From contig CAZDKK010000014.1 in assembly GCA_964506245.1 (NCBI GenBank), positions 21,792 through 85,791 on the forward strand: a stretch of 64,000 bases of DNA. Direction: 5' to 3'. Under the pieces are notes generated by a model. That model made no database searches. It worked only from the letters and a program-made list of their open reading frames with translations, and had not been told where the DNA came from. A program made the position numbers and the translations under genes. This document shows positions 2,491 through 60,087 of this stretch, piece after piece. The DNA comes from an uncultured bacterium (GTDB taxonomy: Bacteria > Eisenbacteria > RBG-16-71-46 > CAIMUX01 > WJJG01). The stretch's first letter is position 1. The number at the start of each line of letters is the position of its first letter.

Positions 2491-2557
2491 TGCGGAGGCG
2501 CGGGCGAGGCAGGTCCGGCAATCCAGACCACGTAGAGCGACAGGGGGAGGTTCGGGA

Positions 2558-3921: not shown

Positions 3922-4042
3922 GCGCTCCGCGGTGCCGGGCCGGCACGCGAGGCGCACTGGGGTGCGCCGGCGCGCCTACCGCGCCCGGGAGGGCATGGGA
4001 ACGCCGCCTCACGATCGGCGGCATCTCGAGGAGGTTTTGAAC

Positions 4043-5974: not shown

Positions 5975-6040
5975 GCCAGCGCCGGTCGAGACCGCCGGGG
6001 CAACCCCGCGGTCGACCGACGAGACAAAGGAGGACAAGCC

Positions 6041-7627
6041 ATGAGAAACGATAGACAAGTGCGCAGAGACGCTGTCGCGGCCGCGCGAGGCCGTGCGAGG
6101 CTGGCGGTCGCTGCGCTGCTGCTGGCCTGCATCGCTGTCACGTGGACGGACGCTGCTTCGGCGCAGGCCCCGTTCACGGATGGAGCCGTCAACCCCGCGC
6201 CGGCGGGCGTGCAAGTGCCCCGTGCCACCCCGCGCGCGATCGCACTCGGACTGCCCATGGGGAACCTCTTCGGCGCGACCCATCGTCTCGAGACGCCACC
6301 GCTCGATGTGCCGGCCTTGCTGGCCGAGGACAGGGCCGCCGAAGAGGGGCCCCAGCGCACCGGGGTCGTGCAGGACTTCGCGCCTCAAACGGGCGAGGCC
6401 GGGCAGTGGACGGTCCTGCCGGACGGCGGGCATCTCTGGACGATGACCTTCGCGGCCCCGGGCGCCGCGGCCCTGCGGCTGCGTGTCCGCCCGTGGGATC
6501 CCCCGGCGGGCGCGGAGCTGATCCTGTTCAACGCACGAAACCCTGAGGAGTCCGTGGGACCCTTCACGAGCTCGCTGCCGATCCGGCAGGACGAGTTCTG
6601 GAGCGCGATCGTCTACGCCGACGAGGTCAATGTGGAGTACTACCTTCCTCCGGGTGTCGATCCGCAGGAGCCGCGCTCCGTCATCACCGTGGACGGGCTG
6701 CTCAACCAGTACCGCGATCCGCTGGCCACGCAGCTACGGGAGCTCTGGTGCCACCTGGACTTGTTGTGCTACCCGGCCTGGGTTCCCGAGGGGGACGGCG
6801 TGGCTGCCATTGCCAATATCGTCTACCCCTACTCGTACTTCTGCTCGTCGGGGATGTTGAACCGGAGTCCGACGGACTATACATCACTCCTCGCGACCGC
6901 CAACCACTGCGGCATCAACACGAGCAACGAGTCGTCGGTCATCGTCACCTGGTTCTACCAGACGTCGGTCTGCAACGGCACACCTCCGAGTCCATCCACG
7001 CTCCCGCAGACGCTGGGCTGCGCGGCGCTCGTGAACGACACGAACACCGACTACTGCCTGGTCGGCCTGCAGGACAGTGGTACCGGCGGCGTGATGTACC
7101 TCGGGTGGGATGCCAACTACTGGTCCAACGGGTCGAGCGGGACATTGATCCACCATCCGGACGGGTCCTACAAGCGGATCACCTTCGGCACGAAAACAGC
7201 CGACGTGACGAGCTGCATCCCGGCCCAGGCCTGGCAGATCTACGTCGCCCACGGGGACGGCGAGGACGAGCCTGGCTCGTCAGGTGCCCCGATGTTCGAC
7301 TCGGCCCACAGGGTCAGAGGCACCGCGAGCTGTGCCACGTGGAGCTGCTACAGCGACGACATCATCGAAGCGGGTCGCTTCGACCTGGCGTACGACAAGC
7401 TCGCGCCCTATCTGGTGCCGACCGATCCCGTGTACGTCAACGCGGGGTACGTCGGTGTCGAGCAGGGCACGTACGCGCAACCGTTCCAGCGCTTCAAGAA
7501 GGGCTTCTTCGCTGTCATCCGGGGGCACGATCTCTATGTCCAGGCGGGCTCCTACCATGAGGCGCTGGTGATCGACAAGGCGATGATCGTCCACTCCCTG
7601 AACGGCAGTGCGGTGATCGGGCAGTAA
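6041..7627 (+). CDS. Secreted trypsin-like (S1-family) serine endopeptidase
   Basis: AAGGAGG RBS; signal peptide. Candidate catalytic triad context TANHC (His), DYCLV (Asp), EPGSSGAPMFD (Ser, GDSGGP-like). Confidence 0.6.
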   Translation: MRNDRQVRRDAVAAARGRARLAVAALLLACIAVTWTDAASAQAPFTDGAVNPAPAGVQVPRATPRAIALGLPMGNLFGATHRLETPPLDVPALLAEDRAAEEGPQRTGVVQDFAPQTGEAGQWTVLPDGGHLWTMTFAAPGAAALRLRVRPWDPPAGAELILFNARNPEESVGPFTSSLPIRQDEFWSAIVYADEVNVEYYLPPGVDPQEPRSVITVDGLLNQYRDPLATQLRELWCHLDLLCYPAWVPEGDGVAAIANIVYPYSYFCSSGMLNRSPTDYTSLLATANHCGINTSNESSVIVTWFYQTSVCNGTPPSPSTLPQTLGCAALVNDTNTDYCLVGLQDSGTGGVMYLGWDANYWSNGSSGTLIHHPDGSYKRITFGTKTADVTSCIPAQAWQIYVAHGDGEDEPGSSGAPMFDSAHRVRGTASCATWSCYSDDIIEAGRFDLAYDKLAPYLVPTDPVYVNAGYVGVEQGTYAQPFQRFKKGFFAVIRGHDLYVQAGSYHEALVIDKAMIVHSLNGSAVIGQ

Positions 7628-7701
7628 CGGGCGGAAGGCAGTGGATCGCCAGGTTGCCCAACGCAGAGGGCCGGCCGCAGCGTGGACGCGTGCACCGGCC
7701 C

Positions 7702-8055
7702 TCACTGCGCGGGCTGGACGTTGCGGAACATGAAGTAGGCCGCCGCGATGAGGCAGAGCGTCGCCCATACGTAGTCGAGCGACAGACGCTGCTTCATGTA
7801 GAAGGCGCAGAAGCCGGCGAAGACGAGCATGGTGATCACTTCCTGGATCACCTTGAGCTGACTGAGCGAGTAGTGCTGGGAGCCGATGCGATTGGCCGGG
7901 ACCTGCAGGCAGTATTCCAGGAAAGCAACGCTCCAGCTCAGGATGATGACGATCAGGAGCGGCTTGTGGCGGTGGTCCTTCAGATGGCCGTACCACGCGT
8001 AGGTCATGAACAAGTTGGATCCAACGAGCAACGCGATCGGCGCGATCTTTGGCAT
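7702..8055 (-). CDS. DMT-family small membrane protein (DUF486-like)
   Basis: 117 aa with four predicted TM helices; GGGGGAG RBS upstream of the ATG at 8055; resembles the short EamA-like/DMT DUF486 family. Confidence 0.7.
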   Translation of the reverse strand: MPKIAPIALLVGSNLFMTYAWYGHLKDHRHKPLLIVIILSWSVAFLEYCLQVPANRIGSQHYSLSQLKVIQEVITMLVFAGFCAFYMKQRLSLDYVWATLCLIAAAYFMFRNVQPAQ

Positions 8056-8316
8056 GGTGTCTCCCCCGCGGGCCCCTCACCGGCCTGAACCTCTCCGGCC
8101 GCTGGCGGGCCCCGGCTTCCCCGCCGGCCCGGCTGCAAGCGGACCGGCCGACCTGCCCCTGTGGCAGTTGTCGGCCGGACAATCGGGGGATTGTACCAGC
8201 GTCGGGGTCGCGCACAGCCAGTTCTTGCACCTGCGGTGCGACCCCGCAACACCCGCCGCGCAATCGGTCGATGAACCCCCCGCCGCAGGGCGACCGTGCC
8301 CCGCGGCAACCCAGCG

Positions 8317-10551
8317 TCACTCCCCTCCACCCGCCAACCACAACAGCGACTGCGCGGCGGCCGTCTGCGTGGCCGTTTCGTCGAAGAAGTAGGGGTGGAA
8401 CGCAAAGCAGACGATCTTGCCGCGCCGGATGCCGAAGCGGAGATCCTCTTCGGTGACCGTGGTGCGCCAGGCGATCGGCCTGTCGTTCAGGTCATGACCG
8501 GCATCCGAGCGGCATCGCGCGGTGTAGATCGGCTCGAGGCCCTCCTCGCGTTCGTACCACGGCGAGAGGCCTGCCTCGGTGGGGTTGGGCACGAGGCACT
8601 CGTAGAAGTACTCGCCCCGCTTGTTGTCCGGGTCCTGCGGCAGACCGCCCCACCGCGAGTAGTCGAGGCAGATGTCGGGAAAGGCTGGATCGGCCGACAC
8701 CGCCCGCACCAGGGACTGCAGATCGCGCGCATCGTCGGTGCCGCGCGGCTTGTTCACGGCCCCGCGCAGGTGGAGGTACTGCCACAGGAAACCGAATCGG
8801 TTCCAGGTCTGTTGGTTGCTGAGATCATCGGGGGAGGGTGTCTTGGGAGGACCCTCGTCCGGCGGAAACGCCTTGGTGATCTTGGTGACGGGGCCGCCCC
8901 AGGCGAAGAGCAGCAGGTTGCCCCCCGCGCCCACGTAGCGCGACAGGAGCATGTTCACGGCGGCCAGGCTGAGGGCGTTGTCCTGCTGGCTCGTCTGGCC
9001 GTTGGCGCAGTCCCAGATGACCGTCTGGTGCTCCCCTAGAATGTCCAGAAAGTTGTCCGGAATGCTGACACCTGGTGAGGAGCCCTCGTCAGGGAACACG
9101 GAGAAGGTGGTCGGCACCTCGCCAGGAGGCAGGAAGTCCCCCATGCACGCGAGCATCCGGTCCCGCCACGCGTCTTCGGGGACGTCGTCCGTCCGCACTC
9201 CGTCGACTCTCCGCGGGCAAGACCGTTGATCATCCACGACCAGGAATCTTCTCGTGAATCCGAACTGCGCCAGGGTGATGTTCACGACGCATCGCGTCTC
9301 CGTCTCCTTCTTGTTCGAGACGTCGCGCATCTTCAGGTAGAAGTAGTGGACCTTGGGACCATCCGCGGGAAACGAGATCACGTCCTGCATCTGGTCGCGC
9401 GGTGCCCAGCCGATCCATCCGCCGCGACCGTCAGTTGCTCGGAAGGGCTCGTCCTCATCCCCGGGGTCGGGGATGTCGAAACCGTAGTTGCACGGTCCGG
9501 GTTCCGTGCCACTGGCCGAGGCATCGGCCTGCCACTGGAGGCGGAAGCGCTGTCCGGGCGCGATGGTGACCTCCCACGGATCGGCGAAGACACCGGTATC
9601 GAAGCTGTGGCGTCCCATCGACGGCTCGAACACGGCGACGTTGATCCGGGTGTCCACGACGAGGAAGGTGACCCAGTTGCGGTTGCGGCTGCGATCCCCG
9701 AAGACTCGCTGCTCGACCGCGCCCGCTTCGTCGATCGCGCGCACGGCGAATCCGTACCGCGACCCGACCTTCATCTCCTCGAGCCACTGCTCGGTCACCG
9801 TGCCGGGGACGCGCTTCCAGGCGCGCTTGGCGCGGGCGAGGTATTCGCTGACGCTGTCGGCGGGGAAGTCTGCCCCCTTGGGCGCCTGCAGCAGGTTTTC
9901 GGCCTTCTCGAATAGCTCCGCGACATCCTTCAGCCGCGTCACGTCGATGCCCGGGTCGGCAATGTGCTTGATCTCGTAGTAGGCCGGCTGCTGATCGGCG
10001 CTGGCCGCGTCGAGGTCCTGGCCGGACCAGGTGAACCGCAAAGTGGAAGCCCAACGGGCGTCCTCGTTCCCGTCCGGGGATTCGATTTCGCTGGTCGGCG
10101 CGATGGTGTGGGCGTTGAAGAGCCGGATGTCGGGGCAGGAGCGGTAGTACTTGTCGTCGACCGCCCGGACGTAGAAGGTGTGCCAGTCGCCATAGCCGTC
10201 CGGTTCCGCATAGGTGGCGGCCCGCGTGACGATCCAATCATCGAAGCTCGTGGTCCGGTGCCAGGCATTCTCCGAGATCGTGTCGTCCACGGCCCATTCG
10301 AACCAGCGGATGACACCGTCCCGGTCGGCCCCGTACCAGTAGAAGTGGACCCGATTCTCCCCGATGTCGGCCGCATTCTCGAGCACGCCGCCCGTGATGC
10401 CCACGGTGGGGCGCTGGTTGCCGGCGGGTTGGCCCGCGAACTCATCGTCGGGGATCAGGAGGCATTGCGCGCCCAGGAGGGCCAGGAGGCAGAGGCACGC
10501 CAACGGGAGCATCCGGGCGAACGCCTTGAAGGTCAGGCCGGGGGGGTACAT
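8317..10551 (-). CDS. Large hypothetical secreted protein/lipoprotein
   Basis: ATG at 10551 is 9 nt after AAGGAGG; N-terminal hydrophobic segment ending LLGAQC; ~744 aa coherent reading frame; no domain recognised. Confidence 0.55.
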   Translation of the reverse strand: MYPPGLTFKAFARMLPLACLCLLALLGAQCLLIPDDEFAGQPAGNQRPTVGITGGVLENAADIGENRVHFYWYGADRDGVIRWFEWAVDDTISENAWHRTTSFDDWIVTRAATYAEPDGYGDWHTFYVRAVDDKYYRSCPDIRLFNAHTIAPTSEIESPDGNEDARWASTLRFTWSGQDLDAASADQQPAYYEIKHIADPGIDVTRLKDVAELFEKAENLLQAPKGADFPADSVSEYLARAKRAWKRVPGTVTEQWLEEMKVGSRYGFAVRAIDEAGAVEQRVFGDRSRNRNWVTFLVVDTRINVAVFEPSMGRHSFDTGVFADPWEVTIAPGQRFRLQWQADASASGTEPGPCNYGFDIPDPGDEDEPFRATDGRGGWIGWAPRDQMQDVISFPADGPKVHYFYLKMRDVSNKKETETRCVVNITLAQFGFTRRFLVVDDQRSCPRRVDGVRTDDVPEDAWRDRMLACMGDFLPPGEVPTTFSVFPDEGSSPGVSIPDNFLDILGEHQTVIWDCANGQTSQQDNALSLAAVNMLLSRYVGAGGNLLLFAWGGPVTKITKAFPPDEGPPKTPSPDDLSNQQTWNRFGFLWQYLHLRGAVNKPRGTDDARDLQSLVRAVSADPAFPDICLDYSRWGGLPQDPDNKRGEYFYECLVPNPTEAGLSPWYEREEGLEPIYTARCRSDAGHDLNDRPIAWRTTVTEEDLRFGIRRGKIVCFAFHPYFFDETATQTAAAQSLLWLAGGGE

Positions 10552-21788: not shown

Positions 21789-22484
21789 TCAGCCCCGCCG
21801 CTTGCGGAAATGTGCCAGCGTACCCAGGCCGGCGAGGCTCACGGCCAGAAGCGTAACGACACCTGGCTCAGGGACAGCTCGGACGCCACCCAAGTCGAGC
21901 TGGTAGTCGAACCCCCACTCGTACCACACCGGTCCCATCCAATCCGCTAAGGGATTGGCCGCACCGGGACCGTTGGGGGCCCATTCGCCTGTGTAGTACA
22001 GTGGATCCTCAACGTCCCAGATCAGTTGATCGATGGAATCGACCGGATCCCGGTTGTATCTCGACAATGCGAGGTAGTAGTTGCCTGGCGCAGGCACGAG
22101 CGCCCCCGTGATTGTCGACAGCTGATTGCCAAGGGTGTAATCCCCGACATCCTCGTTGAAGACCACGCCGCGTCCCCCCGCGTCGAAGAGGTACAGCGTT
22201 GTGTCGTTGGAGTACCACAATGGGCCATAGGTATACGGATTGTCGGTGCTGGCCATGAACAGCGCCACGTCGTAGATGTTGACGTAGTAGACATCCACGT
22301 CATCCGGGTACCCAAGCGAACCGTAGATCGTGGAGAGGTCTCCCGTTCCCACGGGGGTCTCTGCGCTGCTCAAGAGTTCCCCCGCATCCATTTCGTACCA
22401 GACCAAACCGTGCGCGGGCAAAGCCGCGAGCGCCAGCGCCGCCAATCCAATCCCGAAGTGACGAATCATGCCCATCTGGCCCAT
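21789..22484 (-). CDS. PEP-CTERM-anchored secreted protein
   Basis: ATG at 22484 is 6 nt after GGAGG; signal peptide. C-terminal VPEPGVVTLLAVSLAGLGTLAHFRKRRG is PEP, then a TM helix, then a basic tail. Confidence 0.7.
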   Translation of the reverse strand: MGQMGMIRHFGIGLAALALAALPAHGLVWYEMDAGELLSSAETPVGTGDLSTIYGSLGYPDDVDVYYVNIYDVALFMASTDNPYTYGPLWYSNDTTLYLFDAGGRGVVFNEDVGDYTLGNQLSTITGALVPAPGNYYLALSRYNRDPVDSIDQLIWDVEDPLYYTGEWAPNGPGAANPLADWMGPVWYEWGFDYQLDLGGVRAVPEPGVVTLLAVSLAGLGTLAHFRKRRG

Positions 22485-22599
22485 GGTGAACCTCCGCGAA
22501 GCATCTTGCTGTCCGCCATCAGGAAACACCCCACTGCTTCATGTCGCCCTCGATGATTCCACCACCCTGCCGGCCCTGCATGGGCGCTCCAAAGGACGA

Positions 22600-22957: not shown

Positions 22958-26335
<3,378 letters not shown>

Positions 26336-26735
26336 GGCTTACATCCTTGTTGTATTGGCCCCATAACAGAATGCGACGTGGCTCGTGTTGCCTCTCCGAA
26401 CCGGGCTTTCGCCCGATACTCTCCACTTGCTCCCCGTTCCTTCGTGGCCACCATTCCCCGAGGGGGGCGCATCCGCCAGAGACCGCTCGCAGACCTCGAC
26501 GGGCCTCCTACACCTCACCGGGCGTCTGAGCTCGGACAGGCTGATTCCTGCCCACCACGAGCGCTTGATCCCGGCTTCCTTGGGTGCAGGCCTCCGAGGT
26601 TCTCCCCTGACGTCCTGACCACTTGCAAGACCTAGCATCAACGACTGCACGCAGTGTCGCCCGCCGCGTGCTCTTGTTCGGCAGCGTTTCCACTGCGTGA
26701 TCGCTGGTCGGCATCGAGCGCAACACCGCCTCTCG

Positions 26736-27233
26736 TCACGTGCCGTCCTCCTCTTGGAACTCCAGATGCGCACGGCTATTGGGAAACACGAACGCTCGCA
26801 CTGGCCGCCGCCCCGAGGACGTTCGGCCCACCACGAGCATGATCGGTTCTTGGCACCGGTAGTTTGGAGATGTGCTGATGCTGACCATCTGATCAATGTC
26901 TTCTTGGCTCGGCTCGACGCTTGGGCTCGGGTGGTAGTGCCATTCGCCCAGGTAGTGCGTTCGCTGGGACTGGCGCCACAGCTCACCCAGGAGAGACGTC
27001 AGCCCGGCGACCCCTCGCTGGAACCATGTCGGACCCCGTCGCGAGTCCCTTGGAGGACCGGATGCCTCCGTGACGATGGCGGTGCTCTTGTCAGAGGTGT
27101 AGTAGCCGATGAGAATCCCGCCCGTCTCCATCCCATCCCAGCGTGAGCATTCCTTCTCGATGCTCCTCCAGCACTGGTCGTCTATCACGAGTGCGAATTC
27201 ACCGCGCGGTGTCCTCCAGTACCGGTCAGGCAT
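26736..27233 (-). CDS. cap3: CBASS Cap3-like JAB/JAMM isopeptidase
   Basis: JAMM motif EWHYHPSPSVEPSQEDI (H-x-H-x7-S-x2-D) with an upstream Glu. The ATG overlaps the cap2 stop as ATGCCTGA. Confidence 0.8.
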   Translation of the reverse strand: MPDRYWRTPRGEFALVIDDQCWRSIEKECSRWDGMETGGILIGYYTSDKSTAIVTEASGPPRDSRRGPTWFQRGVAGLTSLLGELWRQSQRTHYLGEWHYHPSPSVEPSQEDIDQMVSISTSPNYRCQEPIMLVVGRTSSGRRPVRAFVFPNSRAHLEFQEEDGT

Positions 27234-29172
27234 CTCGTCTATCCTCACGTGCCCATGGCTCACCCTCCGGAGGAACCACGACAGGCCGAATGCCGTTGAA
27301 TCTGCTCCCAGCGTGGACCTGCTCGAACGCAAGAAGCTCCGTTGCCCCTGGTTCCTCCTTCAAACGATACTCGATGGCCTTCACGCACGCGGCAGCGGCG
27401 AGGAGGACGTCGTCGAAGCGGGCCGGGAACAGGGGAGACCAGCAGCCGGCTCCTTCGAGTGTCTCACCCTCCGCCTCCCACTTGGCGCGCTCCTCCCGAA
27501 GCAACGGCTCGATCCGACTTCGGAACCCTTCCAAGTCGAATGCATTGCCCGAGCAGAAGTACAGGAATGTCCGCCGAGCCCAATATCCCACTGATGCAGA
27601 GACGAACAATCGAGGCACACTCCACCACCCTTGAGCCAATGCAACAAGAGCATCGTCAGACCCGGTGCAGTCGATGATAACGTTGTGTCGCTGCAGCAGC
27701 TCTTCGAGGACAGTCTGCTGGACCGGAACCGACTTGGAGTGGATCTCGACCGTTCCCGTCGGAGCGATGGCTCTGAGTCGATCCGCCAGCGCCGTAGCCT
27801 TTGGTCGTCCGAGGTCTCCCCCCGTGAGTGTGTGCCGCGCGAGGTTCCCGGCGGCGAAGAAGTCGCCGTCCACCAGCAGTAGCTGGTGAACACCTCCCCG
27901 CACCAAAATCTCGGCAATCGCGGATCCCAGGGCCCCGCAGCCCAGCAGCGCTACCCGAGCAGAACTCAGGGGGACCTCGATCCGACCTCGGGCGAGTAGG
28001 CGATCCGAGTGCCAGTTGTCCGTCGTCACATACTCGATCTCTTGTTCCCCTCCGAAGGCCTTCTGACGGTCACGCATCCACCATCCCAGGTCATTCGGGC
28101 GAAAACCATCTGCCGGTGGCCCGCCTTCGCGAAGTGCGGGGAGCCGCAACCCCTGCCAATGGACCTCTGTCTCAGGCTCACCCACTTTCATCGGTATTGG
28201 GTAGCCCAGCAAGAGCATCACGTTTTCTTCACCACGAATGCGCCCGGCGATCTTCCGCAGCACCTCATCAACACGGACTCCCTGCATCTGTCCCGCTTCC
28301 CTAAGTTCGCCCCATGTCCTCGGAAAGTGCCACGGGGGAATGATTGCGGGGCGCGCCCAAAGCCACCACAATCCGAGTGTCGGCTCCCTCGAAGCATCGC
28401 GCTCCGAGACACGGAACGAGGCGGTCCGCAGCACGGCATCGCTCCGACCCTGGAACTCTAACGCGCAGATCGTCTTCCGAAATCCTTCCACGTCGGCCAG
28501 GACCGCCACGCCCCAGGAGGTATCGCGCAGTCCTTTCCAGGTGGCGAACGACGCGGCAGATTCATCGTGGACAAGCCGAGTGGTGTTGTCGCTAAAACTG
28601 CACCAGGGAAGTTCAAATGGGTCACCCGGCACCACCAGACGATCATCCGCCGCGAGAGTAAGCCATTCCCGGGTCCGCACGAGATACCAGTGCAGCCGCT
28701 CATCTGCGTCACCGACGGGATCCTGACGAGGGGCCAGGTGCCCGAGACGTCCGACAGGGCTGTCCAGACAGAGGCTCCCATCCCGCCAGAGGCGTTCCTT
28801 CGGACCGGGACGGTTTTGTTTCTGATGAGGAAAGGTCTTGGTGATGCCATCTTTGGTCGCGGGGTAGACCCCAATCTGGCCCAGTGGATACGTGTCATCG
28901 ACACACACGATCCACCTCGACTCCACAGGAACGTGCTTGCCTTCCTTGGCGACTCGAACAGCTGTCGGGAGGGCCCAACATGACTCGTCCGCGATATAGA
29001 TCGGGTCTTTCAGACCTACCCCCTCAAGAGCAGAGGCGGTCCTGATCCCTGCGCGCAGCGCCGCGGATGGTTCGCGTCTGTCAGTAGCCACATGGCCCTC
29101 GGGCAAATCTCTCGCGGCCTGGCACGGCCGGCGCAGTGGGTACCGTGTAGCCCCGGCCCTTGCCATCGTCAT
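27226..29172 (-). CDS. cap2: CBASS Cap2-like E2-E1 fusion (ThiF/MoeB-type adenylation domain)
   Basis: Rossmann motif VALLGCGALGSAIAEILVRGGVHQLLLVDGD in the C-terminal half; an E2-like Cys-containing N-terminal half. The ORF overlaps the CD-NTase 3' end; the true start may be an internal GTG near 29087 (GTGGCTACTGA overlaps the cdn stop). Confidence 0.8.
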   Translation of the reverse strand: MTMARAGATRYPLRRPCQAARDLPEGHVATDRREPSAALRAGIRTASALEGVGLKDPIYIADESCWALPTAVRVAKEGKHVPVESRWIVCVDDTYPLGQIGVYPATKDGITKTFPHQKQNRPGPKERLWRDGSLCLDSPVGRLGHLAPRQDPVGDADERLHWYLVRTREWLTLAADDRLVVPGDPFELPWCSFSDNTTRLVHDESAASFATWKGLRDTSWGVAVLADVEGFRKTICALEFQGRSDAVLRTASFRVSERDASREPTLGLWWLWARPAIIPPWHFPRTWGELREAGQMQGVRVDEVLRKIAGRIRGEENVMLLLGYPIPMKVGEPETEVHWQGLRLPALREGGPPADGFRPNDLGWWMRDRQKAFGGEQEIEYVTTDNWHSDRLLARGRIEVPLSSARVALLGCGALGSAIAEILVRGGVHQLLLVDGDFFAAGNLARHTLTGGDLGRPKATALADRLRAIAPTGTVEIHSKSVPVQQTVLEELLQRHNVIIDCTGSDDALVALAQGWWSVPRLFVSASVGYWARRTFLYFCSGNAFDLEGFRSRIEPLLREERAKWEAEGETLEGAGCWSPLFPARFDDVLLAAAACVKAIEYRLKEEPGATELLAFEQVHAGSRFNGIRPVVVPPEGEPWAREDRRDA

Positions 29173-30223
29173 CCGGAGGAGAGGGGAACTTGGTTCCTAG
29201 TAACTCGCCCCAGAGCAAGCCGCTGTCCCTCCGCTCAGTCGAGTCGTAGGCCTTGCGGGCCAGCTCCGCACCATGCTTCGCTTGGCTCCAGAAGACCCCG
29301 AACTCATTCGATGCCAGCCGGTGAAGGACATCATGGGCGGGAACCCCGTAGTCTCCGAGACGTGGCTTACTGCCAGCCTCAGCGAGAATCCGGTACTTCG
29401 ACACGATGTTCTCGAGTGTCTCCACGACGCCCTGCGCCATCGACTCGATTCCGTCCGGGCAGCAATCACCGATGATGCGCTCCAGCGGGAAGCCCCTCGG
29501 GTGTTCGGGATCTTCGTGATTGACGAGGCGCCACCACTTGAGTGCCTTCACTACATTCACGAAATGGCCATTCGTTGCCTTGTTCTTGTCGCGGGTCCAG
29601 CGAATCTGTTCGAGGGGGTGGGTATCGTCCCACTCGTCGGCGTCACGATCTGGTATTCGAAGAGGCCGGAGCTTCCACTCATCCTGATCCGCAGCTTCTT
29701 TGAGCATCTGTTCTGCATTGGCCTTGTAGCGGTTGGACAACGCAAGCCAGGAGGGATGCAGCCGCCAGTCGCGGGCCTCTTCGATGTTCTCGTCCGTCGT
29801 CACCGCCTCGGACTTGAGTACCCCGATCTCGCTCTCCCGGGGTGCAGAAGTCAGAACCAGGTCCAGTTCAACGTACGACAGCTCGATTCCGAACGAGCGC
29901 CCCTGATACCGCCACTTCCCCTTATAGTGTTCATCTAGGAATGGCTCGAAGTGGGCCATCGCGTCCCTTGGCGCGTACTCGGACTCAGAGAGCCTCGTGA
30001 CGACGATGATATCCACGTCCGCTCGCTGGTCGTTCTTGGGCCGAACCGCCGTGTAGCGTCGGTAGCTGCCCTGAAGGAAGTCACTCACGAGAATCGGGGC
30101 AAGATTCTCGTCAGAATTCAGCCGCGCGCGAAGGGTCTTGTGCCCAATGATCAACTCCGATCGCTGATCTGCGGTGGGGCGGATGGCATTCAAGAATTGC
30201 TCGAAGTCGCTCTTGAGTTCCAT
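29081..30223 (-). CDS. cdn: cGAS/DncV-like nucleotidyltransferase (CD-NTase, SMODS domain)
   Basis: Pol-beta NTase signature GSYRRYTAVRPKNDQRADVDIIVV (GS...DxD); ~380 aa; AGGAG RBS 6 nt before the ATG at 30223. Confidence 0.8.
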   Translation of the reverse strand: MELKSDFEQFLNAIRPTADQRSELIIGHKTLRARLNSDENLAPILVSDFLQGSYRRYTAVRPKNDQRADVDIIVVTRLSESEYAPRDAMAHFEPFLDEHYKGKWRYQGRSFGIELSYVELDLVLTSAPRESEIGVLKSEAVTTDENIEEARDWRLHPSWLALSNRYKANAEQMLKEAADQDEWKLRPLRIPDRDADEWDDTHPLEQIRWTRDKNKATNGHFVNVVKALKWWRLVNHEDPEHPRGFPLERIIGDCCPDGIESMAQGVVETLENIVSKYRILAEAGSKPRLGDYGVPAHDVLHRLASNEFGVFWSQAKHGAELARKAYDSTERRDSGLLWGELLGTKFPSPPDDDGKGRGYTVPTAPAVPGRERFARGPCGY

Positions 30224-30237
30224 AACGATCTCCTATG

Positions 30238-31764
30238 TCACTCCGCACCACGGAGTGGCAATGTGAAACTCTGCGAGTAGCCCGAGTGTCCGTCAAAGTC
30301 ATACTCGTAGAGCACGGCCGGGTCCAAGGCGCGCCCCAGCTGTCCCAGGAAGTACATGAAGCCGTTAGGAGCGGCCGCGAAGAGGTGAAGAGAGACCGGC
30401 TCATCGATGCGCCGACGCTCCTTCATCACGAGTTGTTGGAGCTGCTCCGCAAGCGCCGCCGCGTGATCCGCCCCCTGAACGCTCGACGCCCCGACCCCAG
30501 AGAGGGGGCGCAGATGAAGAAACACACGAGGACTGACCCCCGCAGAGTGCAGATGCCGATTCACGTCCGCATGAACGTCATGAGTGACCGACACGGCGAG
30601 CACCAGTCCGCCTCGGCCATCCGGTTGCTCGGCGCGCTCGACCATCCACTGCGCGTGGGCAAACTCCGGAGGGGGACTCACGGCTGGCTTCCAAACTGCG
30701 CGGGCTCTACCTTTCTGAAGTGGGTAGACCGATGCTCCTGACGCCCGATGAAGGATATATCCAGCCGCGTATGCGACAGAAAGGTGGCATTCCAGCAGGA
30801 CGTGGTGCTCTGCTTGCCGAAGGGCCTCGGTGCTCAAGAACTCATGTAGAGCCGGGAGTACCCGATCGCCCCACAGCTGCCGATCCCGAATCGAGCGGCC
30901 GTCGAAGTACTGCGCCAGGCAGACGAAGCGGTCACACTCGTCTTCCAGATGCTCTGCAAAGCGCATGAAACTGCGGATTCCAATCGCTCGGGGGTCTCTC
31001 GTCTGCGGTTCAGCGATGACGAGGCCTTCGGCTGCGCAGATGGACCGCAAGGTTGAGGCATTAAAGTCCCTGGGTCCACTCGTGACAAACTTCGTCGCCA
31101 GATCATCATAGGGGACGACTTGCTTGGCTTCATCGATCGGGCGAAGGCCTGCCCGGTAGAGCCGATCCGAGAGACTCCTGAGGAGATCGCTGCGGGAGAA
31201 ATAGTTGAGTTTGAGGCGCAAGCGACGTGCGAAGTCCTCGAACTCATCGTCGCTCGCGTTCACTGCACTCTTCCATTTCTCACGGATCATTCCTAGTGCG
31301 CTCTTGGGACCGCGCGAAAAGAACGCATCCGGAAGGGTGCCGTCGCAGTCGCGGATGGCAGTGGCAAGGACGTCTTCCGAACGCCATGTCCAGTTGGATA
31401 CAAGGGCAAGCACTAGACCAGGGTGCTTCTCCCTTTCTGCGAGGAAGGCGTCATAGAAGCGCTTCAGGAGAGAGGTCTTGGCGTTGATGAAGCCGGGATC
31501 GATCATGGCATCCGAGGAGTAGGCGTCACGGTGATCAACATGGTACTTCACTTGGAAATACTGCGCGGTACATCGGGTGTTTGAGTCCAGGATCCCGGTT
31601 CCCTTGTAGTAGACGACGACATCATCGACTCCGGACACGGTGTCGTGCTCGATGACAACTCGCTCCACGTGGCTGTCTTGGAACAGAAGTCCGGCAGCGT
31701 GATACCAGAAGAACCTCCCCTGGTAGTTGTCCCCTTTCATTCGGGCTGCAACTTGTCGGGCCAC
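30238..31764 (-). CDS. cap4: CBASS effector, Cap4-like: N-terminal DUF4297-type nuclease + C-terminal SAVED domain
   Basis: N-terminus VDDVVVYY...AQYFQVKYH fits the D...QxK restriction-endonuclease-like motif of Cap4. C-terminal half with ...LHLFAAAPNGFMYFLGQLG... resembles SAVED/CARF-like sensor domains. Sits immediately upstream of the CD-NTase. Confidence 0.65.
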   Translation of the reverse strand: MARQVAARMKGDNYQGRFFWYHAAGLLFQDSHVERVVIEHDTVSGVDDVVVYYKGTGILDSNTRCTAQYFQVKYHVDHRDAYSSDAMIDPGFINAKTSLLKRFYDAFLAEREKHPGLVLALVSNWTWRSEDVLATAIRDCDGTLPDAFFSRGPKSALGMIREKWKSAVNASDDEFEDFARRLRLKLNYFSRSDLLRSLSDRLYRAGLRPIDEAKQVVPYDDLATKFVTSGPRDFNASTLRSICAAEGLVIAEPQTRDPRAIGIRSFMRFAEHLEDECDRFVCLAQYFDGRSIRDRQLWGDRVLPALHEFLSTEALRQAEHHVLLECHLSVAYAAGYILHRASGASVYPLQKGRARAVWKPAVSPPPEFAHAQWMVERAEQPDGRGGLVLAVSVTHDVHADVNRHLHSAGVSPRVFLHLRPLSGVGASSVQGADHAAALAEQLQQLVMKERRRIDEPVSLHLFAAAPNGFMYFLGQLGRALDPAVLYEYDFDGHSGYSQSFTLPLRGAE

Positions 31765-31964
31765 TCTTGGTCTCCAGCTACGATTCCTGAAGTGTGGACT
31801 CCATATCAGTCTCGTCAGAGAACCGGTCTACCGCATCGCGGAGCCGGCCGAGTTCGGCGAGGCTCGTGGGCGTCGACGGATCGCGCCGAACGAAGTCGAG
31901 CTCGCTCCCGTCCATGCGCGCCTGCTGTATCTACCGAGCGAGTTGATGTCGGTCCGTCCACATC

Positions 31965-34874
31965 TCAGCCGAATAGCCCCGCCTGACCTCCTCTCTCTTC
32001 GTGGTTTGCACTCACCAGCCGCAATATCTCTGGCCAGCTCTGAACAAGTGCGTTGTAGCTCATTGCTTCCTGTGCCCGCTTCTTCCGCTCGCAGATCGTG
32101 TAGAGCCGATAGGCGAGCTCCCGGCAAGCCTCGACCCGCGCCCCGATCCTCCTGACAAGCTCCGCCGCCGCCCCCTCCCCGCCAGATTCCAGCACCCGGA
32201 CAAGGTGATGGACCATCTCCCAGACCGTCAGACGTGCGTCCGTGCTGGGGTCCCAGTGCGCTGGCAGCTCCGCGGGACCCAGCAGCCGTACCCTGCCTGC
32301 CTTGGAGGCGAGGAACCCCGCCTCGACCATCCCCGCCACGCTGGTGTTCTTCGCTTTCGAGAGGGTCTCGGCCACGCCGAACTCGCCCTCTGCGAAGGCG
32401 TACTGCTCGAACCACGCCAGCGCCCAGCGGGTGTCAGCGTCGAAGTCGCCTTCCTGCTCCGCCAGCGCATCGTCGAGAGTTTGGTTTATGAGTGCCAGCG
32501 CTTCCCGAACCAGAAGCGGGCTTCCCTCGGCGTCGAGTACCCGCTCGTAGCGGGTGTACACGGCCATCCCTGGGCCGATGGCCGCCTGCGCGAGGTCCAC
32601 CGGGGCGATGTTGCCCCGCTGGAGGTGGGCGAGTGCCCGCGGCAGCTCGGCCTTGAGCGCTGTGACCAGATCGCGCCGCGTCGCGATGGGCGCGTCATCA
32701 GCTCGCTTGCAGCAGACGAGGATGATACTGGATGCGAGGGCGTTGGTACCCATCGCGACCATTCGACCCGAACCTTCCGTTCGCATGGGCCAGGTTCCTG
32801 TGATCGCGAACCCCGCACGGATCACGGCGTCGAGAAAGGTATCCCAGCCCGTGTTCGTAGTCCCGTTAGCATGATCGCTCTCGGACTGCTTGAACGCGTA
32901 GTAGATGGTGACCGGGAAGGCGGGGTGCGCTTGTTCAGCGAGGCGCCGCATGGCGTTAGTCATTCCTCCAAGGAAGAACGCCGCGGCTCGTTCCCTGCCC
33001 CCGTGGCGGTGAAGGGTGGCAACCAGCTCTTCAGATTTCGGAGTGGATAGTGTCGCGAAGATATCGGGGAAGATGGGTTTGAGCGCCCGTCGCAGCCATA
33101 CGTAGAAGAAGTCCGATAGCTCCGCGTAGCCGATGTTGTCGTAGTAGGGTGGGTCGGTGGAGACGACCCTGTCGCGAGATTGTGCCTGCACCGATGCGTC
33201 CAACTGGGTGGCACCACCAGACGCTGACGCCGGAAACGCGGCGATGGCCATTGCACCCTTGTCGAGTGCCGTGTGTAGGCTCCCGCCGACGTCTGCGAAC
33301 GGGTTCGCTTCGGCGAAGTCCCAGACCATCGGGATTGCCTGTCGCGCGAAGGTCTCTCGGAATGCACCGCGGTCACTCATCCAAGAGGCAAGCGACGAGC
33401 CAATGTTCGCGACCTTGGAGACAGCAAATGCGAGATACACCGCCACAGCGTCGGCGTAGGCGGAGGCGCCCTCGGGGACGAGCGACCTACTCCCGTCGGG
33501 CAGGCCGGCGGCCAATGCGGCGCGCTTCACCAATCCGCGTGCTTCCTGCACTCGGTCGCAGAGGGTCGTCAGTGCCAGTGTCTGACGTGGTGTGAAGACG
33601 TGTCCCCACGTCGAAAGCCCATAGGCGGAGCAGACACCACCCGTGATCATGGCTCTGGTGGGAGTCAAACCGGACAAGGAGGTCGCTCGTGCCTCGCTGA
33701 CCATGGCGTCGTCGGCGACGCGCAAGGCGATGCTCTCCCCCGCATCCGTTGGTGAGAGATACACCCTGGTGCGGTCACCCTCGGCGACGACGGCCATGAG
33801 GCGGGCACCGAGCCGCCCGGCCTTGCCTTCTTCGCGGACATACCATCGCGGCACAGGAACGCCGCTCATGAGGCAGAGGAAGTCCTGGGCCTTGCCAGCT
33901 CGTGTGCCGTTCTGAGCCGCCTTCATGTCGTACGGCTTGCCCATTCTCACGGCAAAGCGGTAGCCTCCGTCTTCAATGACCGGCTCGACGTACGCCTCCT
34001 TGCCCGCCTTGGTCGACAGCATGAACGTCGAGGCGAGCGGCACGTCGATGTGCGCGTAGGCCGGGTTCGGGCTCTTCACCGTCCGCGCCCACAGCCAGGC
34101 GATGACGGTGAGCTTGCGCCCGACCAGGGGTCTTAGGTCCCGCCGCTCCCGCGCCATCTCCTCCGTGATCTCGATCTTGGGGTAGAGGTGGCCGATGCGC
34201 TTCTCGGCCTCGTCGCGCATCCAGCGGCCGTAGTAGCGCACGTCCTCGGCCAGGCCCTGCGCGCCGCGCCACGTGCGTCCGATCAGCTCGGGCTTCTGGC
34301 GCGCCTCGGGGTTGACCGGCGGACGGCCCGCGAACTTCGGCGGGATCTCGATCATCGCCTTGCAGATGAGGACGGCCACCGGATTGAGATCGCTGGCATA
34401 GGCCTCGAGCCCGAGCCGCTGCGCCTCGAGCGGCAGCGACCCGCCCCCAGCGAAGGGGTCGTGAAAGGCGGGCAGCTTGTGGCGGTCGAACAGCTCCTTG
34501 GCGCGCGGGTGGTCGACGTTCTCGGCGCAGGTCCGCCGCCAGCTTGCCCAGATCTCATCGCGCGCCTTCTGGAGCACCTCCTCGTTGGTCGTGTTCTCCC
34601 ACTTGACCAGCTCCTCGATGATCTTGAAGAGCCGCTTGCGCTCCTTCTCCTGCGCCTTCTCGGTCGGGAAGAGGTCCGGGTGCCCCGAGGGGTCGTCCAC
34701 CATTTGCGCGAAGATCACCGCCCGCGCCGCCGCCAGCGGCCGGCGCGCCCACCACAGGTGCAGCGTCGAGGGGTGCCCGTGGCGGATCGACTTCTCCCGC
34801 GCCGAGGCCGCGTTGATCGCCTCGAGCGGCAGGGCGACTTCGATGAGCTTCTTCTTGGCGATGACGTGGGTCAC
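31965..34874 (-). CDS. DUF1156 (COG1743) adenine-specific DNA methyltransferase; methylase component of Hma-like module
   Basis: N-terminal DUF1156 signature [41 protein letters not shown]. AdoMet motif [18 protein letters not shown] and motif [19 protein letters not shown]. Confidence 0.85.
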
Positions 34875-34895
34875 GGGGCTACCTCGGATCCTCCA

Positions 34896-36215
34896 TCACT
34901 CCGCCTCCTCCCCCAGCAACCACTCCGCCGCCGGCACCCACCGCACCCGCGCCGGCAGCTCGGCGGCCGGCGGAATGGACTCCAGCGTCAGCAGCACGGG
35001 CGTGGCTCGCGGGTGTTCCTTGGCAGCTGCTGTCAGGGCCCGCATCTCGCGCTCCAGCGTCGACGCATCGCGGACATCCAGGCACACCTGCAGCAGCAGG
35101 GTCGGCCGCCCCGGCGCCTGCCCCAGGAAGTCGACCTCGAAGTCCTCCTTGGTGCGAACATAAGTGATGTCGTAGCCGCGGCGCTCCAGCTCGACGCAGA
35201 CGACGGTCTCCAGGGCATGACCGAGACTCGGGCGACCGCTCCGATCGTAGACGGGTATGAGCCCCGGATCCACGGGGTACGCTTTGCGCGGATTCACCAT
35301 CCGCCGTCGCTCGGAGGCCGTGTGGAGCGAGACGACTCGGACCAGGAACGAATCCTCCAGATGTCCCATGTAGGCGTGCAGCGTGTCCTTGCCCACGGGA
35401 ACACCCTGGGATCGGAGCGCATCGTAGAACTTCTGGACGCTGAAGAGCCCCGCGGGGCTGGCGAGCAGTTGCCGCTGCATCCAGCGCAGTGCGAGCGGAT
35501 TGGAGACCTGGTGCCTCTCGATCACATCGCGCAGCACGACGACGTCCACATAGGAGCGCAGCAGCTTGACCCGGTCCGGCTCCTCAGCCCCCAGTGTTTC
35601 CGGGAATCCACCTTCCGTGAGATACGCCCGCAGCCGACTCTCGAGCTTCGAACGTGCAGCCTTCCGCAACCGATTCCACGGGACCTCGGGTTCCTCGCCC
35701 CGATGGCGGAGCACTTCGCGGAAGCTGAAGGGGTGCACCAGCACTTCCAGGGCGCGCCCGCGCATGCTCGTGGCGACTTCGCGACTGAGCAGCCGCGCGG
35801 AAGATCCCGACAGGAAGAGTTCCACGCGCTCCGTGTCCACCAAGCGCCGGGCGAACGGCTCCCATCCCGCCACGCATTGGATCTCGTCGAAGAAGAAGGT
35901 GACGGTCTGCGAGTCCCTTCTCTCGGGCTGCTGGCGGTAGAACTCCTCCACCAGCCAGGCCAGATCGGCAGTCGTCAGGTTGGGCAGGCGATCATCCTCA
36001 AAGCAGAGGAAGAGCATCGCCTCGCGAGGCATCCCGGTCGCCAGTCGGTCCGCCAAGCACTGCCATAGGAAAGTAGTCTTGCCGCTCCGGCGCACGCCGA
36101 CCACCGCCATGGCCTTGCGGGCCACGCGCGGGAGGCGCACCTCCCTCCTGGTGTAGACGGGCGGCGGAGTGGCCAGGCCCTCCGCCATCTTCAGCCGGAG
36201 CATGTCCTGCATCAT
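34896..36215 (-). CDS. COG1373-type AAA+ ATPase with C-terminal DUF4143
   Basis: Walker A VVGVRRSGKTTFL and Walker B FFFDEIQ; this 'archaeal-ATPase' family is common in defence islands. Embedded between the helicase and the methylase. Confidence 0.8.
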   Translation of the reverse strand: MMQDMLRLKMAEGLATPPPVYTRREVRLPRVARKAMAVVGVRRSGKTTFLWQCLADRLATGMPREAMLFLCFEDDRLPNLTTADLAWLVEEFYRQQPERRDSQTVTFFFDEIQCVAGWEPFARRLVDTERVELFLSGSSARLLSREVATSMRGRALEVLVHPFSFREVLRHRGEEPEVPWNRLRKAARSKLESRLRAYLTEGGFPETLGAEEPDRVKLLRSYVDVVVLRDVIERHQVSNPLALRWMQRQLLASPAGLFSVQKFYDALRSQGVPVGKDTLHAYMGHLEDSFLVRVVSLHTASERRRMVNPRKAYPVDPGLIPVYDRSGRPSLGHALETVVCVELERRGYDITYVRTKEDFEVDFLGQAPGRPTLLLQVCLDVRDASTLEREMRALTAAAKEHPRATPVLLTLESIPPAAELPARVRWVPAAEWLLGEEAE

Positions 36216-36375
36216 TTATCCTTCCTAGAAGGACAATATCACCACAAATTCTCCTTTTGAAAAGGATAAATAACTCGGCTTTCGTCCCTGCGCAGCCCCG
36301 GCCCGAGTCCGGAAGCTGCGGCCAGCCGCTTCCTAACCTCCTTCACGATGGGACCTTGCGTGGCGATCCCCGCTG

Positions 36376-40062
<3,687 letters not shown>

Positions 40063-40252: not shown

Positions 40253-42415
40253 CTACCGTACAAGCACAACCCGCCTCGTCGCCGACGACACCCCCACATC
40301 CAGCCGGCAGAAGTAGGTGCCCGCGGGCATCGGCCGGCCGTGCTCGTTGTTCCCGGTCCAGACGACCTCGTGCGGACCGGCCGGCAAACGCCCATCCAGC
40401 AGCGACGCCACGCGCCGTCCCTCGGTCGAGAAGACGCCCAATCGCACCAGGCTTTCCTGCGAGAGCGTGAAGCGGATCAGCGCCTGCGGCGTGAACGGAT
40501 TCGGCTGACCCTCCTCCAGCACGAATCCTCCCATCACCTGCGGCTCGACGCCGGCAGCAAAGGTGCTCTGCAGCACCATCAAGCCCCCGTCACTGAGCCC
40601 CGCCAGGATCTGATTGCCCCACACCGCGACCTCCGTGGCAGCGCAGGTCGTGATGAAGTACCCGGCTTCCACCGGCGCCGACGGAACGCTCACGTCGATC
40701 ACGCGGATGCCGGCAGCATCGTCGGCCACATAGGCGTATTGCCCTTGTACGGCGACCTTCCGGGCATGGCCCGGTGTGTCGCATAGCCCCACGGGGAACG
40801 GGTCCGCCGGATCGCTGACATCGACGATGCAGAGCCCTCGCGCTCCGTTGGCGAGGTACGCGTAGTTCCCGGCCACCGCGACACCCCACGACCAGTTGTC
40901 GGGCTGGTACCCGCCGACTGCAACCGGCGAGGTGGGGTCACTGACGTCGACGATCTCCAACCCGTAGTAGTACTGGGCGACGTAGGCATAGTCGCCGCGG
41001 ACATCGACATCATGGGACCCTGCGGGGATGTTGGAGATCTCCATGGGCGCGGTCGGCACGCTGACATCGATGATGCTCAGGCCCTCCTCTTCGTGCACGA
41101 CGTACGCGTAGTTGCCTTGCGCGTCGATTTCCAGCGCGCGCCAACGGCCCTGGGTCTCGCCGAGGATCTGCGGTGCGGTGGGTTCGCTGACATCAAGGAC
41201 ACCGATGGCGCCGTAGTATCCTGCCAGGTACGCATACGGAGGAACCGGGACGGCATCCATCGCGTACCAGAAGCCCTGGAAACCCCGAGTGACGGGAATG
41301 CTCGATCCGCGGGTGTCGATGATGAAGAGACCCGCCGTGGGCACCCGGCTCCATGCATCCCCCTCACCGCCATCTTCCTCGCTGGGGCGGTAGCCCCCGC
41401 ACAAGTAGAGGTCGGAGCCCACGATGTCGAGGCTGGTGACATCGCCCACCAGGGCGTAGTACCCGAGGGACGCCGGCGCGGCGGGATCGGCGACATCGCA
41501 GATTCGCAGTCCACCCCACCACGCGGCGATATAGGCGGTGTCGTCCGCAATGAACATTCGTCCCGGGCGCCCATAGATCTCGAAGGATGACACCACGACC
41601 GGGGCAGCGGGCATGCTGACGTCCAGGATCTCCAAGTACTCCCAGAACGAGAGGATCGCGTAGTCCCCATGCATCGTAATGGAGACGACTTCGTCGTCGG
41701 CATCGTACTGCGCAACCTCCACGGGGTGGGCGGGATCGCTCACGTCGACGACCCGCATCCCGGGGACGGTGGCGATGTAGGCATAGGAGCCCGCTACCGC
41801 AACGGCGTGCACGGGTACCCAGGGATTGAAGATGCTCACCTGAACAGGGGCGGAGGACACGCTGACGTCGAGGATGCGCAGACCCACGAGCTCGTCGGCG
41901 AAATAGAGCAGATTGCCCACCAGGCACAGGTTGCCCAACGGGCTGGACGTCAGATAGTAACCGACCTGGTGCGGCGCGGCCGGCTGGCTGATGTCGAGAA
42001 TGCGCACGCCGCGCCAGTTGTCCGCGACGTAGGCGTAGTTGCCCGCCACGACCACGTCGACCGCCGTGGTTTCACAGTATCCGGACCCGACCTCGATCGG
42101 CGAGGCCGGGTCGCTGACGTCGACCACGTGCAGGCGCGGGCCACCGACGTAGGCGTATTGCCCGCTCACCGCGACGCAGCAGACCTCCGGCATGGGCAGG
42201 AACGCGACCTGGGTGGGCCCCTGCACGGCCGTGACATCCAGGATGAGCAGGCCGCTGCGCGCTGCGCAGTAGGCAAAGCTACCCTGGACCTGGACATCTT
42301 CGAGATAGCCTGGAAGGCCCCCGACGTACTCGACGTTCCATGCGTCCTGAGCGACCGCGGGCCATACGGTCACCGTCACCAGCACCAGAACGGAGGTCGC
42401 GATGGAGGATTTCAT
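40253..42415 (-). CDS. LVIVD-repeat beta-propeller protein with T9SS-type CTD
   Basis: ATG at 42415 preceded by AAGGGAG; signal peptide. More than 12 repeats of (YAYVA..GLRI[IV]DVSDPAAP). C-terminus GTYFCRLDVGVSSATRRVVLVR. Confidence 0.7.
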   Translation of the reverse strand: MKSSIATSVLVLVTVTVWPAVAQDAWNVEYVGGLPGYLEDVQVQGSFAYCAARSGLLILDVTAVQGPTQVAFLPMPEVCCVAVSGQYAYVGGPRLHVVDVSDPASPIEVGSGYCETTAVDVVVAGNYAYVADNWRGVRILDISQPAAPHQVGYYLTSSPLGNLCLVGNLLYFADELVGLRILDVSVSSAPVQVSIFNPWVPVHAVAVAGSYAYIATVPGMRVVDVSDPAHPVEVAQYDADDEVVSITMHGDYAILSFWEYLEILDVSMPAAPVVVSSFEIYGRPGRMFIADDTAYIAAWWGGLRICDVADPAAPASLGYYALVGDVTSLDIVGSDLYLCGGYRPSEEDGGEGDAWSRVPTAGLFIIDTRGSSIPVTRGFQGFWYAMDAVPVPPYAYLAGYYGAIGVLDVSEPTAPQILGETQGRWRALEIDAQGNYAYVVHEEEGLSIIDVSVPTAPMEISNIPAGSHDVDVRGDYAYVAQYYYGLEIVDVSDPTSPVAVGGYQPDNWSWGVAVAGNYAYLANGARGLCIVDVSDPADPFPVGLCDTPGHARKVAVQGQYAYVADDAAGIRVIDVSVPSAPVEAGYFITTCAATEVAVWGNQILAGLSDGGLMVLQSTFAAGVEPQVMGGFVLEEGQPNPFTPQALIRFTLSQESLVRLGVFSTEGRRVASLLDGRLPAGPHEVVWTGNNEHGRPMPAGTYFCRLDVGVSSATRRVVLVR

Positions 42416-42741
42416 CTGCTTCTCCCTTCTCTTCTCGGTCCTGCCGCCCACTACTCGATCGATCTGGAGAAGTCCGGTCAATCGACTGACAAGGCCGCTG
42501 GGCCTGGGTCGATTACACACGTCAAGTATGCGACTGGCCCAGGCAAATGGGCAAGTGGGAAGGCGAGCCTGGAGTTCCCGGCGCGAGTCGCGCTCCGTTC
42601 CCCTCGGTCGTCCGGGCGGCAGCCTTCCGGGTCATGCGGGGCCCCGCGCCGCTGTTGTCACGCCCGGCGCGGGGACCTATGCTGGCGGTCGTCATGCGCG
42701 ATCCCGTTCACATCCCAGGCGTGGCCCGCAGGCGATCGGCG

Positions 42742-60000: not shown

Positions 60001-60087
60001 CCGCCTCATCGGGAGCAGGTCACCGCCACATTCCTCGCGGGCGCGAGTGAGCGCTGGCCAGTGACGAAGCGTTGCAGGGAGGAACTG

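Follow-up and report, generated by a model that had tools for sequence, protein, structure and literature searches.

The stretch of DNA considered here (the window) comprises 64,000 nucleotides of contig CAZDKK010000014.1, from an uncultured bacterium of the Eisenbacteria lineage. Positions 26736-31764 of its minus strand are exactly filled by four open reading frames (ORFs) that run in the same direction and encode an effector (Cap4), a nucleotidyltransferase similar to cGAS and DncV (CD-NTase, here CdnD), an E2-E1 fusion protein (Cap2) and an isopeptidase of the JAB/JAMM type (Cap3). An earlier note on this DNA had described them as four co-directional genes of a type II antiphage signalling system based on cyclic oligonucleotides (CBASS); the ORFs are all there, and so are the motifs quoted for them in the translations. 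With a probability of roughly 0.9, the operon is a complete, intact-looking type II CBASS that belongs to the CdnD02 type of Enterobacter cloacae and follows the gene order cap4-cdnD-cap2-cap3.

Family assignment of the four proteins

The four proteins were compared with the profiles of Pfam, PADLOC and NCBIfam and with the solved structures of the PDB, and folds were modelled with AlphaFold2. Each has a full-length match to a PADLOC CBASS profile, in agreement with the type II reading of the earlier note, and the profile E-values, which range from 1e-10 to 4e-186 across the four proteins, lie far beyond chance (Table 1). The Pfam families SMODS, SAVED, ThiF and JAB, which that note had proposed to search for, are all recovered, and the predicted catalytic residues are invariant in the homologue alignments of all four proteins. 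By sequence comparison with the PDB, three of the four (CdnD, Cap2 and Cap4) match structures from E. cloacae.

The cyclase harbors the CD-NTase motif GSYRRYTAV...DVDIIVV. Its matches to the CdnD enzymes of E. cloacae and Salmonella have E-values of ~1e-107 with 46-48% identity, the E. cloacae enzyme, a cAAG (cyclic AMP-AMP-GMP) synthase, standing at 1.5e-107 and 48%. The next clade is CdnB (PDB ID 7ljo), with an E-value of 1.3e-5 by sequence and a template modelling (TM) score of 0.62 by fold. The AlphaFold2 model of the cyclase (predicted local distance difference test, pLDDT, of 75) superimposes on the CdnD structures 7d4s and 7ljl with TM scores of 0.78-0.85, which bears out the NTase fold expected of this 380-residue protein, while its fold matches to CdnB, CdnC, CdnG and DncV are far poorer. 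The closest relationship, in sequence as in predicted fold, is with characterised CdnD, and the cyclase is assigned on this basis to clade D as a probable EcCdnD02-like enzyme. Residues G52, S53, D69, D71, D121 and Q206 are invariant in 22 cyclase sequences; D69, D71, D121 and Q206 correspond to Asp69, Asp71, Asp121 and Gln210 of EcCdnD (PMC8096243).

The effector possesses the motifs DD...QVK and HLFAAAPNGFMYFLGQ. It matches E. cloacae Cap4 (EcCap4, PDB ID 7yib) over residues 1-493 with an E-value of 2.1e-41, and the same full-length protein is the best fold match of its AlphaFold2 model (pLDDT 91; E-value 4.8e-40, TM score 0.67), as anticipated for a nuclease joined to a SAVED domain; the match to the Cap4 of A. 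baumannii (AbCap4) is much poorer (TM score 0.37). No variation is seen at D47, D48, Q71, K73 and H75 across 42 effector sequences, and K73 aligns with the catalytic K74 of EcCap4, the residue mutated in PDB entry 7yia. The PADLOC profile, the alignment with EcCap4, the fold of the model and the conservation of D47/D48, Q71 and K73 together assign the N-terminal domain as a probable nuclease.

Cap2 displays the ThiF/MoeB-type motif GCGALGSAIAEILV...DGD and matches E. cloacae Cap2 (PDB ID 7to3) with an E-value of 1.3e-72, its N-terminal half matching no Pfam family at E<=10. The E2 cysteine C108, the E1 cysteine C550, the glycines of G384xG386xxG389, D408 and R419 show no variation across 17 sequences from related loci, and the two cysteines align with C109 and C548 of EcCap2, which are alanines in the C109A/C548A chain of the PDB. 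Cap3 harbors the JAMM motif HYHPSPSVEPSQED (HxHx7Sx2D), a set of 15 sequences shows no variation at E36, H99, H101, S109 or D112, and its sole match among solved structures is a JAB "peptidase" (E-value 1.9e-7). These two genes might conceivably belong to another ubiquitin-like conjugation system, similar to Bil or 6A-MBL, that merely adjoins an NTase gene, as the NCBIfam 6A-MBL cap2_3 model gives sub-threshold matches to Cap2 (126 bits for a cut-off of 320) and to Cap3. Both matches fall far under the cut-off, however, the locus contains neither a ubiquitin-like nor an MBL gene, and the CBASS-specific PADLOC E1-E2 and JAB profiles are matched over their full length; moreover, translational coupling ties both genes to the cyclase and the four-gene set is kept as a unit, so that this alternative is effectively refuted already.

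The junctions between the genes are those of a coupled operon as the earlier note had outlined it, and each holds in the sequence. Between the stop of cap4 and ATG 30223 of the cyclase lie 14 nucleotides, and an AGGAG ribosome-binding site (30234-30230, minus strand) lies 6 nucleotides 5' of this ATG. The coding sequence of cap2 overlaps the 3' end of cdnD, by 11 nucleotides if it starts at GTG 29091, and the cap3 ATG overlaps the cap2 TGA as ATGCCTGA at 27233-27226. GTG 29091 is the most likely start of cap2 and ATG 29172 a less likely one: this GTG aligns with the ATG or GTG starts of cap2 in three homologues, the Cap2 protein of the closest relative is also 621 residues long, and gene callers placed the start at the same GTG on two Logan contigs. 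Cap3 starts at ATG 27233 rather than at the first TTG of its ORF. The deposited annotation of the effector (500 amino acids) starts at M9 and is 8 residues (31741-31764) shorter than the version starting at GTG 31764, a start supported by the conserved N-termini of homologues (MA.xQVAAR..GD).

Table 1. Features of the CBASS cassette and of the surrounding Hma locus, in window positions.
Feature	Positions	Strand	Description
cap4, predicted D..QxK (PD-(D/E)xK-like) endonuclease with C-terminal SAVED domain	31764..30238	-	508 amino acids, GTG start; PADLOC endonuclease-SAVED, full length, E 4.1e-158; Pfam SAVED, residues 312-502, E 4.3e-28
cdnD, CD-NTase	30223..29081	-	380 amino acids; PADLOC cyclase PDLC00822, positions 1-375/375, E 4.3e-152; Pfam SMODS, E 7.5e-24
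Candidate protease-sensing "activation loop" of CdnD	29833..29654	-	residues ~131-190; AlphaFold2 pLDDT 44-59; region present in EcCdnD too
Stop-loss extension RGPCGY of CdnD	29101..29081	-	CGA 29101-29099 in place of the homologue stop, then five further codons to TGA 29083-29081
cap2, ORF extent	29172..27226	-	
cap2, gene proper, E2-E1 fusion (ubiquitin-transferase-like)	29091..27226	-	621 amino acids; PADLOC E1-E2, positions 3-600/607, E 4.2e-186; Pfam ThiF, E 1.4e-21
cap3, ORF extent	27332..26736	-	
cap3, gene proper, JAB/JAMM isopeptidase	27233..26736	-	165 amino acids; PADLOC JAB, positions 8-166/168, E 2.6e-58; Pfam Prok-JAB, E 1.1e-10
hmaA, SNF2 helicase	40062..36376	-	PADLOC HmaA, near full length, E 0
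AAA_14/DUF4143 ATPase, between hmaA and hmaB	36215..34896	-	439 amino acids; PADLOC candidate system PDC-S01, E 1.4e-91
hmaB, DUF1156 adenine methylase, upstream neighbour of the cassette	34874..31965	-	PADLOC HmaB, full length, E 0; Pfam DUF1156
hmaC, HEPN_Swt1 and DUF499 ATPase, downstream neighbour of the cassette	26335..22958	-	PADLOC HmaC, E 0; Pfam HEPN_Swt1 and DUF499

Purifying selection is shown by the data, as are the gene content and order, the family memberships, the predicted folds and the conservation of catalytic residues: relative to the closest relative (locus L003), the ratio of nonsynonymous to synonymous substitution rates (dN/dS) is 0.20 for cap4, 0.13 for cdnD and 0.20 for cap2, values to which recent events are invisible since dS is ~0.8-0.9 in this comparison. 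No evidence contradicting the CBASS assignment was found. Some points weigh against the reading of the operon as an intact system of the E. cloacae type. Among the NCBIfam models, only that of the SAVED domain is matched above cut-off, those of the CBASS cyclase, Cap3 and 6A-MBL remaining sub-threshold. Effector residues 1-250 match no Pfam family at E<=10, including the DUF4297 profile of Cap4 nucleases that the earlier note had proposed as a check; the nuclease domain is included in the direct alignment with EcCap4, so that this miss is attributed to a gap in profile sensitivity. Identity to characterised proteins is just 48% for the cyclase and 25-27% for Cap4, which makes the identity of the signal a prediction. 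Finally, the encoded C-terminus of the cyclase is Tyr380 rather than Ala or Gly, with a Glu at tail position -4, and priming by Cap2 may be impaired as a result.

At E<=1e-20, 1791 proteins are related to the cyclase; identity reaches 82% for the nearest of them and lies at 62-69% for over 100 cluster representatives. This is a large, horizontally mobile family, and the operon is a regular member of it rather than the useful divergent member suggested previously, its closest relatives being 62-82% identical. The order Cap4-CdnD-Cap2-Cap3 is kept in 18 of the 20 related loci checked, and these span Myxococcota, Cyanobacteria, Acidobacteriota, Actinomycetota, Gammaproteobacteria, Anaerosomatales, Kushneria, Clostridia and Caldilineaceae; phage records contain no relative of the cyclase. 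On a conjugative plasmid of Enterobacter hormaechei, genes for SAVED, cyclase, ThiF and Mov34 proteins succeed each other in the same order as in the window. As a discovery the operon is of small value, since it is a textbook type II CBASS with well above 1000 known relatives and a model system, that of E. cloacae, as its closest characterised homologue. The assignment does go beyond the public record and the NCBIfam labels, in which the four genes are merely those of SAVED, nucleotidyltransferase, ThiF and Mov34 proteins. To note, on three wastewater metagenome contigs (L005-L007, positions 1-8444) the CBASS cassette adjoins genes for a NERD-kinase, a MAD7-domain protein and a 1852-residue protein with no Pfam match, and is followed downstream by a GIY-YIG protein, an Mrr nuclease and an integrase, forming another defence island.

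The C-terminal tail of the cyclase

In the DNA alignment, the TGA or TAA stops of three homologues face CGA 29101-29099 of the window, from which the frame extends over six codons in all to a TGA within the cap2 start region. As judged from this alignment, the stop codon of the cyclase is mutated from TGA to CGA, a stop-codon loss. An identical 380-residue cyclase occurs in two independent Logan assemblies, from two SRA runs, which makes an error of a single assembly unlikely. The cyclase has a disordered tail with the conserved ...RFA motif, and the conserved conjugation residue A374 carries six extra residues because the stop codon has been lost: the window's tail reads ...PGRERFA+RGPCGY, to be compared with the ...KTGRFA end of E. 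cloacae CdnD. Among 120 homologue representatives, 115 end at ...RFA (one of them at ...RSA), and five, including that of the window, bear extensions of 3-7 residues. The first added residue of the four other extended relatives is L, C, S or W, each one mutation away from a stop codon. Tail position -4 is occupied by Glu in the window's cyclase and by Gly in ~90% of relatives.

The functional weight of this tail is known from characterised systems. Cap2 adenylates the terminal residue of the cyclase and conjugates it, the E. cloacae C-terminus being ...GRFA (bioRxiv 10.1101/2022.03.31.486616). A terminal Ala or Gly is required (10.1101/2023.09.29.560134), and mutation of the terminal residue abolishes immunity in other systems (bioRxiv 10.1101/2022.03.31.486616; 10.1101/2023.09.29.560134). 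Cap3 of both E. cloacae and V. cholerae cuts linear cyclase-GFP fusions precisely after the last cyclase residue (bioRxiv 10.1101/2022.03.31.486616). Mutagenesis data on the tail residues G378, R379 and F380 were sought and not found in the text of this Cap2 preprint. Given the position of the Cap3 cut in known systems, Cap3 would need to trim RGPCGY before Cap2 could act, and we infer that either Cap3 removes the extension in the manner of a maturase, or priming by Cap2 is impaired in this copy.

The first branch leads to a tentative proposal, less probable than not, in which the cyclase is a natural "pro-CD-NTase". In it, Cap3 would begin as a maturase that exposes A374, as deubiquitinases process ubiquitin precursors, and priming by Cap2 would follow. 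If true, Cap3 is no longer an antagonist in this operon but is needed for activation, and the extensions in 5/120 close relatives represent a state that arises repeatedly and is tolerated. The second branch, rather unlikely, holds that the loss of the stop codon has disabled the priming arm: A374 would not be adenylated, and the system would be unprimed and attenuated, or starting to decay. The alignment of the homologue TGA with CGA, the exact ends of 115 of the 120 relatives at ...RFA or ...RSA, the loss of immunity upon terminal mutation elsewhere and the unusual Glu at -4 all speak for it. Against it, Cap2 and Cap3 are full length with all catalytic residues intact and dN/dS is ~0.2, although the dS of ~0.8-0.9 would hide a recent loss; the cleavage of linear C-terminal fusions by Cap3, right after the last cyclase residue, makes trimming plausible, and the similar short extensions of four other relatives suggest that the state is tolerated. 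Decay of cap2 and cap3 following the tail mutation, considered separately, is unsupported by residue conservation and dN/dS, though dS is near saturation. The tail is a small, testable curiosity, and a natural test case for the question whether Cap3 can mature the cyclase besides deconjugating it.

Setting of the cassette in an Hma locus

The cassette lies in the hmaB-hmaC junction of a co-directional Hma system that spans 22958-40062. Its GC content is 0.609, as compared to 0.66-0.70 in the Hma genes and 0.677 in the rest of the window. It was most likely acquired horizontally into this junction of the defence system. Hma junctions are an insertion hotspot, with foreign defence genes in ~66.5% of hma loci (PMC11232893), and the window likewise contains foreign defence genes between its hma genes, its cargo being the CBASS at the B-C junction and, at the A-B junction, an ATPase of the PDC-S01 type. 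Among 61 related Hma loci holding both genes, hmaB and hmaC are adjacent (gap <=116 nucleotides) in 42 and separated by inserts of 0.4-5.5 kb in 19, the 5.6-kb B-C gap of the window being the largest seen in this comparison. CBASS genes occur in none of 80 related Hma loci. The locus is one more example of defence systems nested in Hma junctions.

The searches for marks of insertion returned no direct or inverted repeats bracketing the cassette and no integrase marking the insertion; the window contains no tRNA, and the 22-41 kb region no Rfam family. A search for promoters and terminators gave no informative matches, and the 400-nucleotide spacer between cap3 and hmaC contains no convincing additional small gene.

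Some other features of the surroundings deserve mention. Relatives of the PDC-S01-type ATPase are found inside two related Hma loci (L032 and L037). HmaC possesses an N-terminal Swt1-like HEPN domain (residues 11-123, positions 25967-26305, E-value 3.8e-35), the PADLOC HmaC profile beginning only at residue 165; since related Hma loci match HmaC from residue 1, this HEPN fusion is common in this Hma subgroup. Farther away, a 785-residue protein encoded at 54692-57049 (minus strand) contains a Double-GTPase 2 domain (DO-GTPase2, E-value 6.7e-10) and may be a conflict-system gene outside the main island. Large, secreted-looking proteins with a C-terminal FlgD Ig-like domain are encoded at 25-1767, 40253-42520 and 60061-62496 (C25 peptidase, LVIVD-repeat and Reg_prop, respectively), and a 246-residue protein with a PEP-CTERM-like tail at 21789-22529; these proteins give a hint of the lineage.

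Proposed mechanism and comparison with known systems

The trigger of the operon, the identity of its signal, the degradation of DNA and the priming of the cyclase are drawn from the literature on characterised systems. The CD-NTase would remain inactive until infection, and a possible trigger is the cleavage of its disordered central loop by a phage prohead protease. A 2026 preprint reports this mode of activation for E. cloacae CdnD and for ~18% of the enzymes of clade D (PMC12991175), and the low-confidence region at residues ~131-190 of the window's cyclase occupies a place equivalent to the EcCdnD loop, which makes such a trigger plausible here by analogy. Priming would fall to Cap2, which would adenylate the C-terminal alanine of the cyclase and attach the cyclase to target proteins via the E1 and E2 cysteines, a reaction that Cap3 would reverse.

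The activated cyclase would then synthesise a cyclic trinucleotide, most likely 3'3'3'-cAAG. The earlier note had regarded the nucleotide specificity as unknown; the homology of the two proteins to the cAAG synthase EcCdnD and the cAAG receptor EcCap4 yields a specific prediction, cAAG. EcCdnD produces cAAG (PMC8096243), and EcCap4 is a cAAG-binding "type II Cap4", a kind of receptor that oligomerises and cuts DNA promiscuously (PMC10419184). It is possible, though doubtful, that the same architecture employs another signal, cAAA or another cyclic tri- or dinucleotide, to which Cap4 would be tuned. The modest identities to EcCdnD (just 48%) and EcCap4 (25-27%) leave room for it, as does the dependence of CD-NTase product specificity on a small number of side chains in the pocket (PMC8096243), of which the comparison made here covers Q206 and the catalytic Asp residues. 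However, the closest characterised cyclase is a cAAG synthase and the closest receptor a cAAG receptor, both from one E. cloacae operon, and by fold the cyclase is far nearer to EcCdnD than to CdnB, CdnC, CdnG or DncV. With cAAG as the predicted signal, its binding by the SAVED domain would cause Cap4 to oligomerise, and the D..QxK endonuclease would degrade DNA indiscriminately, killing the infected cell.

Among known systems, that of V. cholerae (DncV-CapV-Cap2-Cap3) shares the regulatory logic of Cap2 and Cap3 and a conjugated cyclase C-terminus. It differs by its cyclase, which belongs to another clade and matches the window's cyclase fold with a TM score of only ~0.47, and by its cyclic dinucleotide signal and phospholipase effector, where the window has an endonuclease-SAVED effector. 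The environmental family of CdnD/Cap4 type II CBASS is much closer: at 62-82% cyclase identity, gene order, gene lengths, coupling and conserved residues are all shared. The differences reside in the six-residue extension and the Glu at -4 of the window's cyclase, and in the genomic setting, as Hma genes are absent from the flanks of all 14 related genome loci.

The closest characterised system is the E. cloacae CdnD02 operon (PDB IDs 7d48 and 7ljl for CdnD, 7to3 for Cap2-CdnD and 7yib for Cap4), which encodes these four proteins in an identical order, as the E. hormaechei plasmid shows. The cyclases share D69, D71 and D121 at identical numbering, a central loop of low confidence and a disordered C-terminal tail with the ...RFA motif; both catalytic cysteines of Cap2, the JAMM motif of Cap3 and the EcCap4-type association of D..QxK and SAVED are also common to both. 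Identity is moderate, at 46-48% for the cyclase, 32% for Cap2, 41% for Cap3 and 25-27% for Cap4. Whereas the E. cloacae cyclase ends at ...KTGRFA, that of the window continues past ...PGRERFA with RGPCGY; and whereas the E. cloacae operon is located on an enterobacterial plasmid or island, the cassette described here lies within the Hma system of a high-GC genome.

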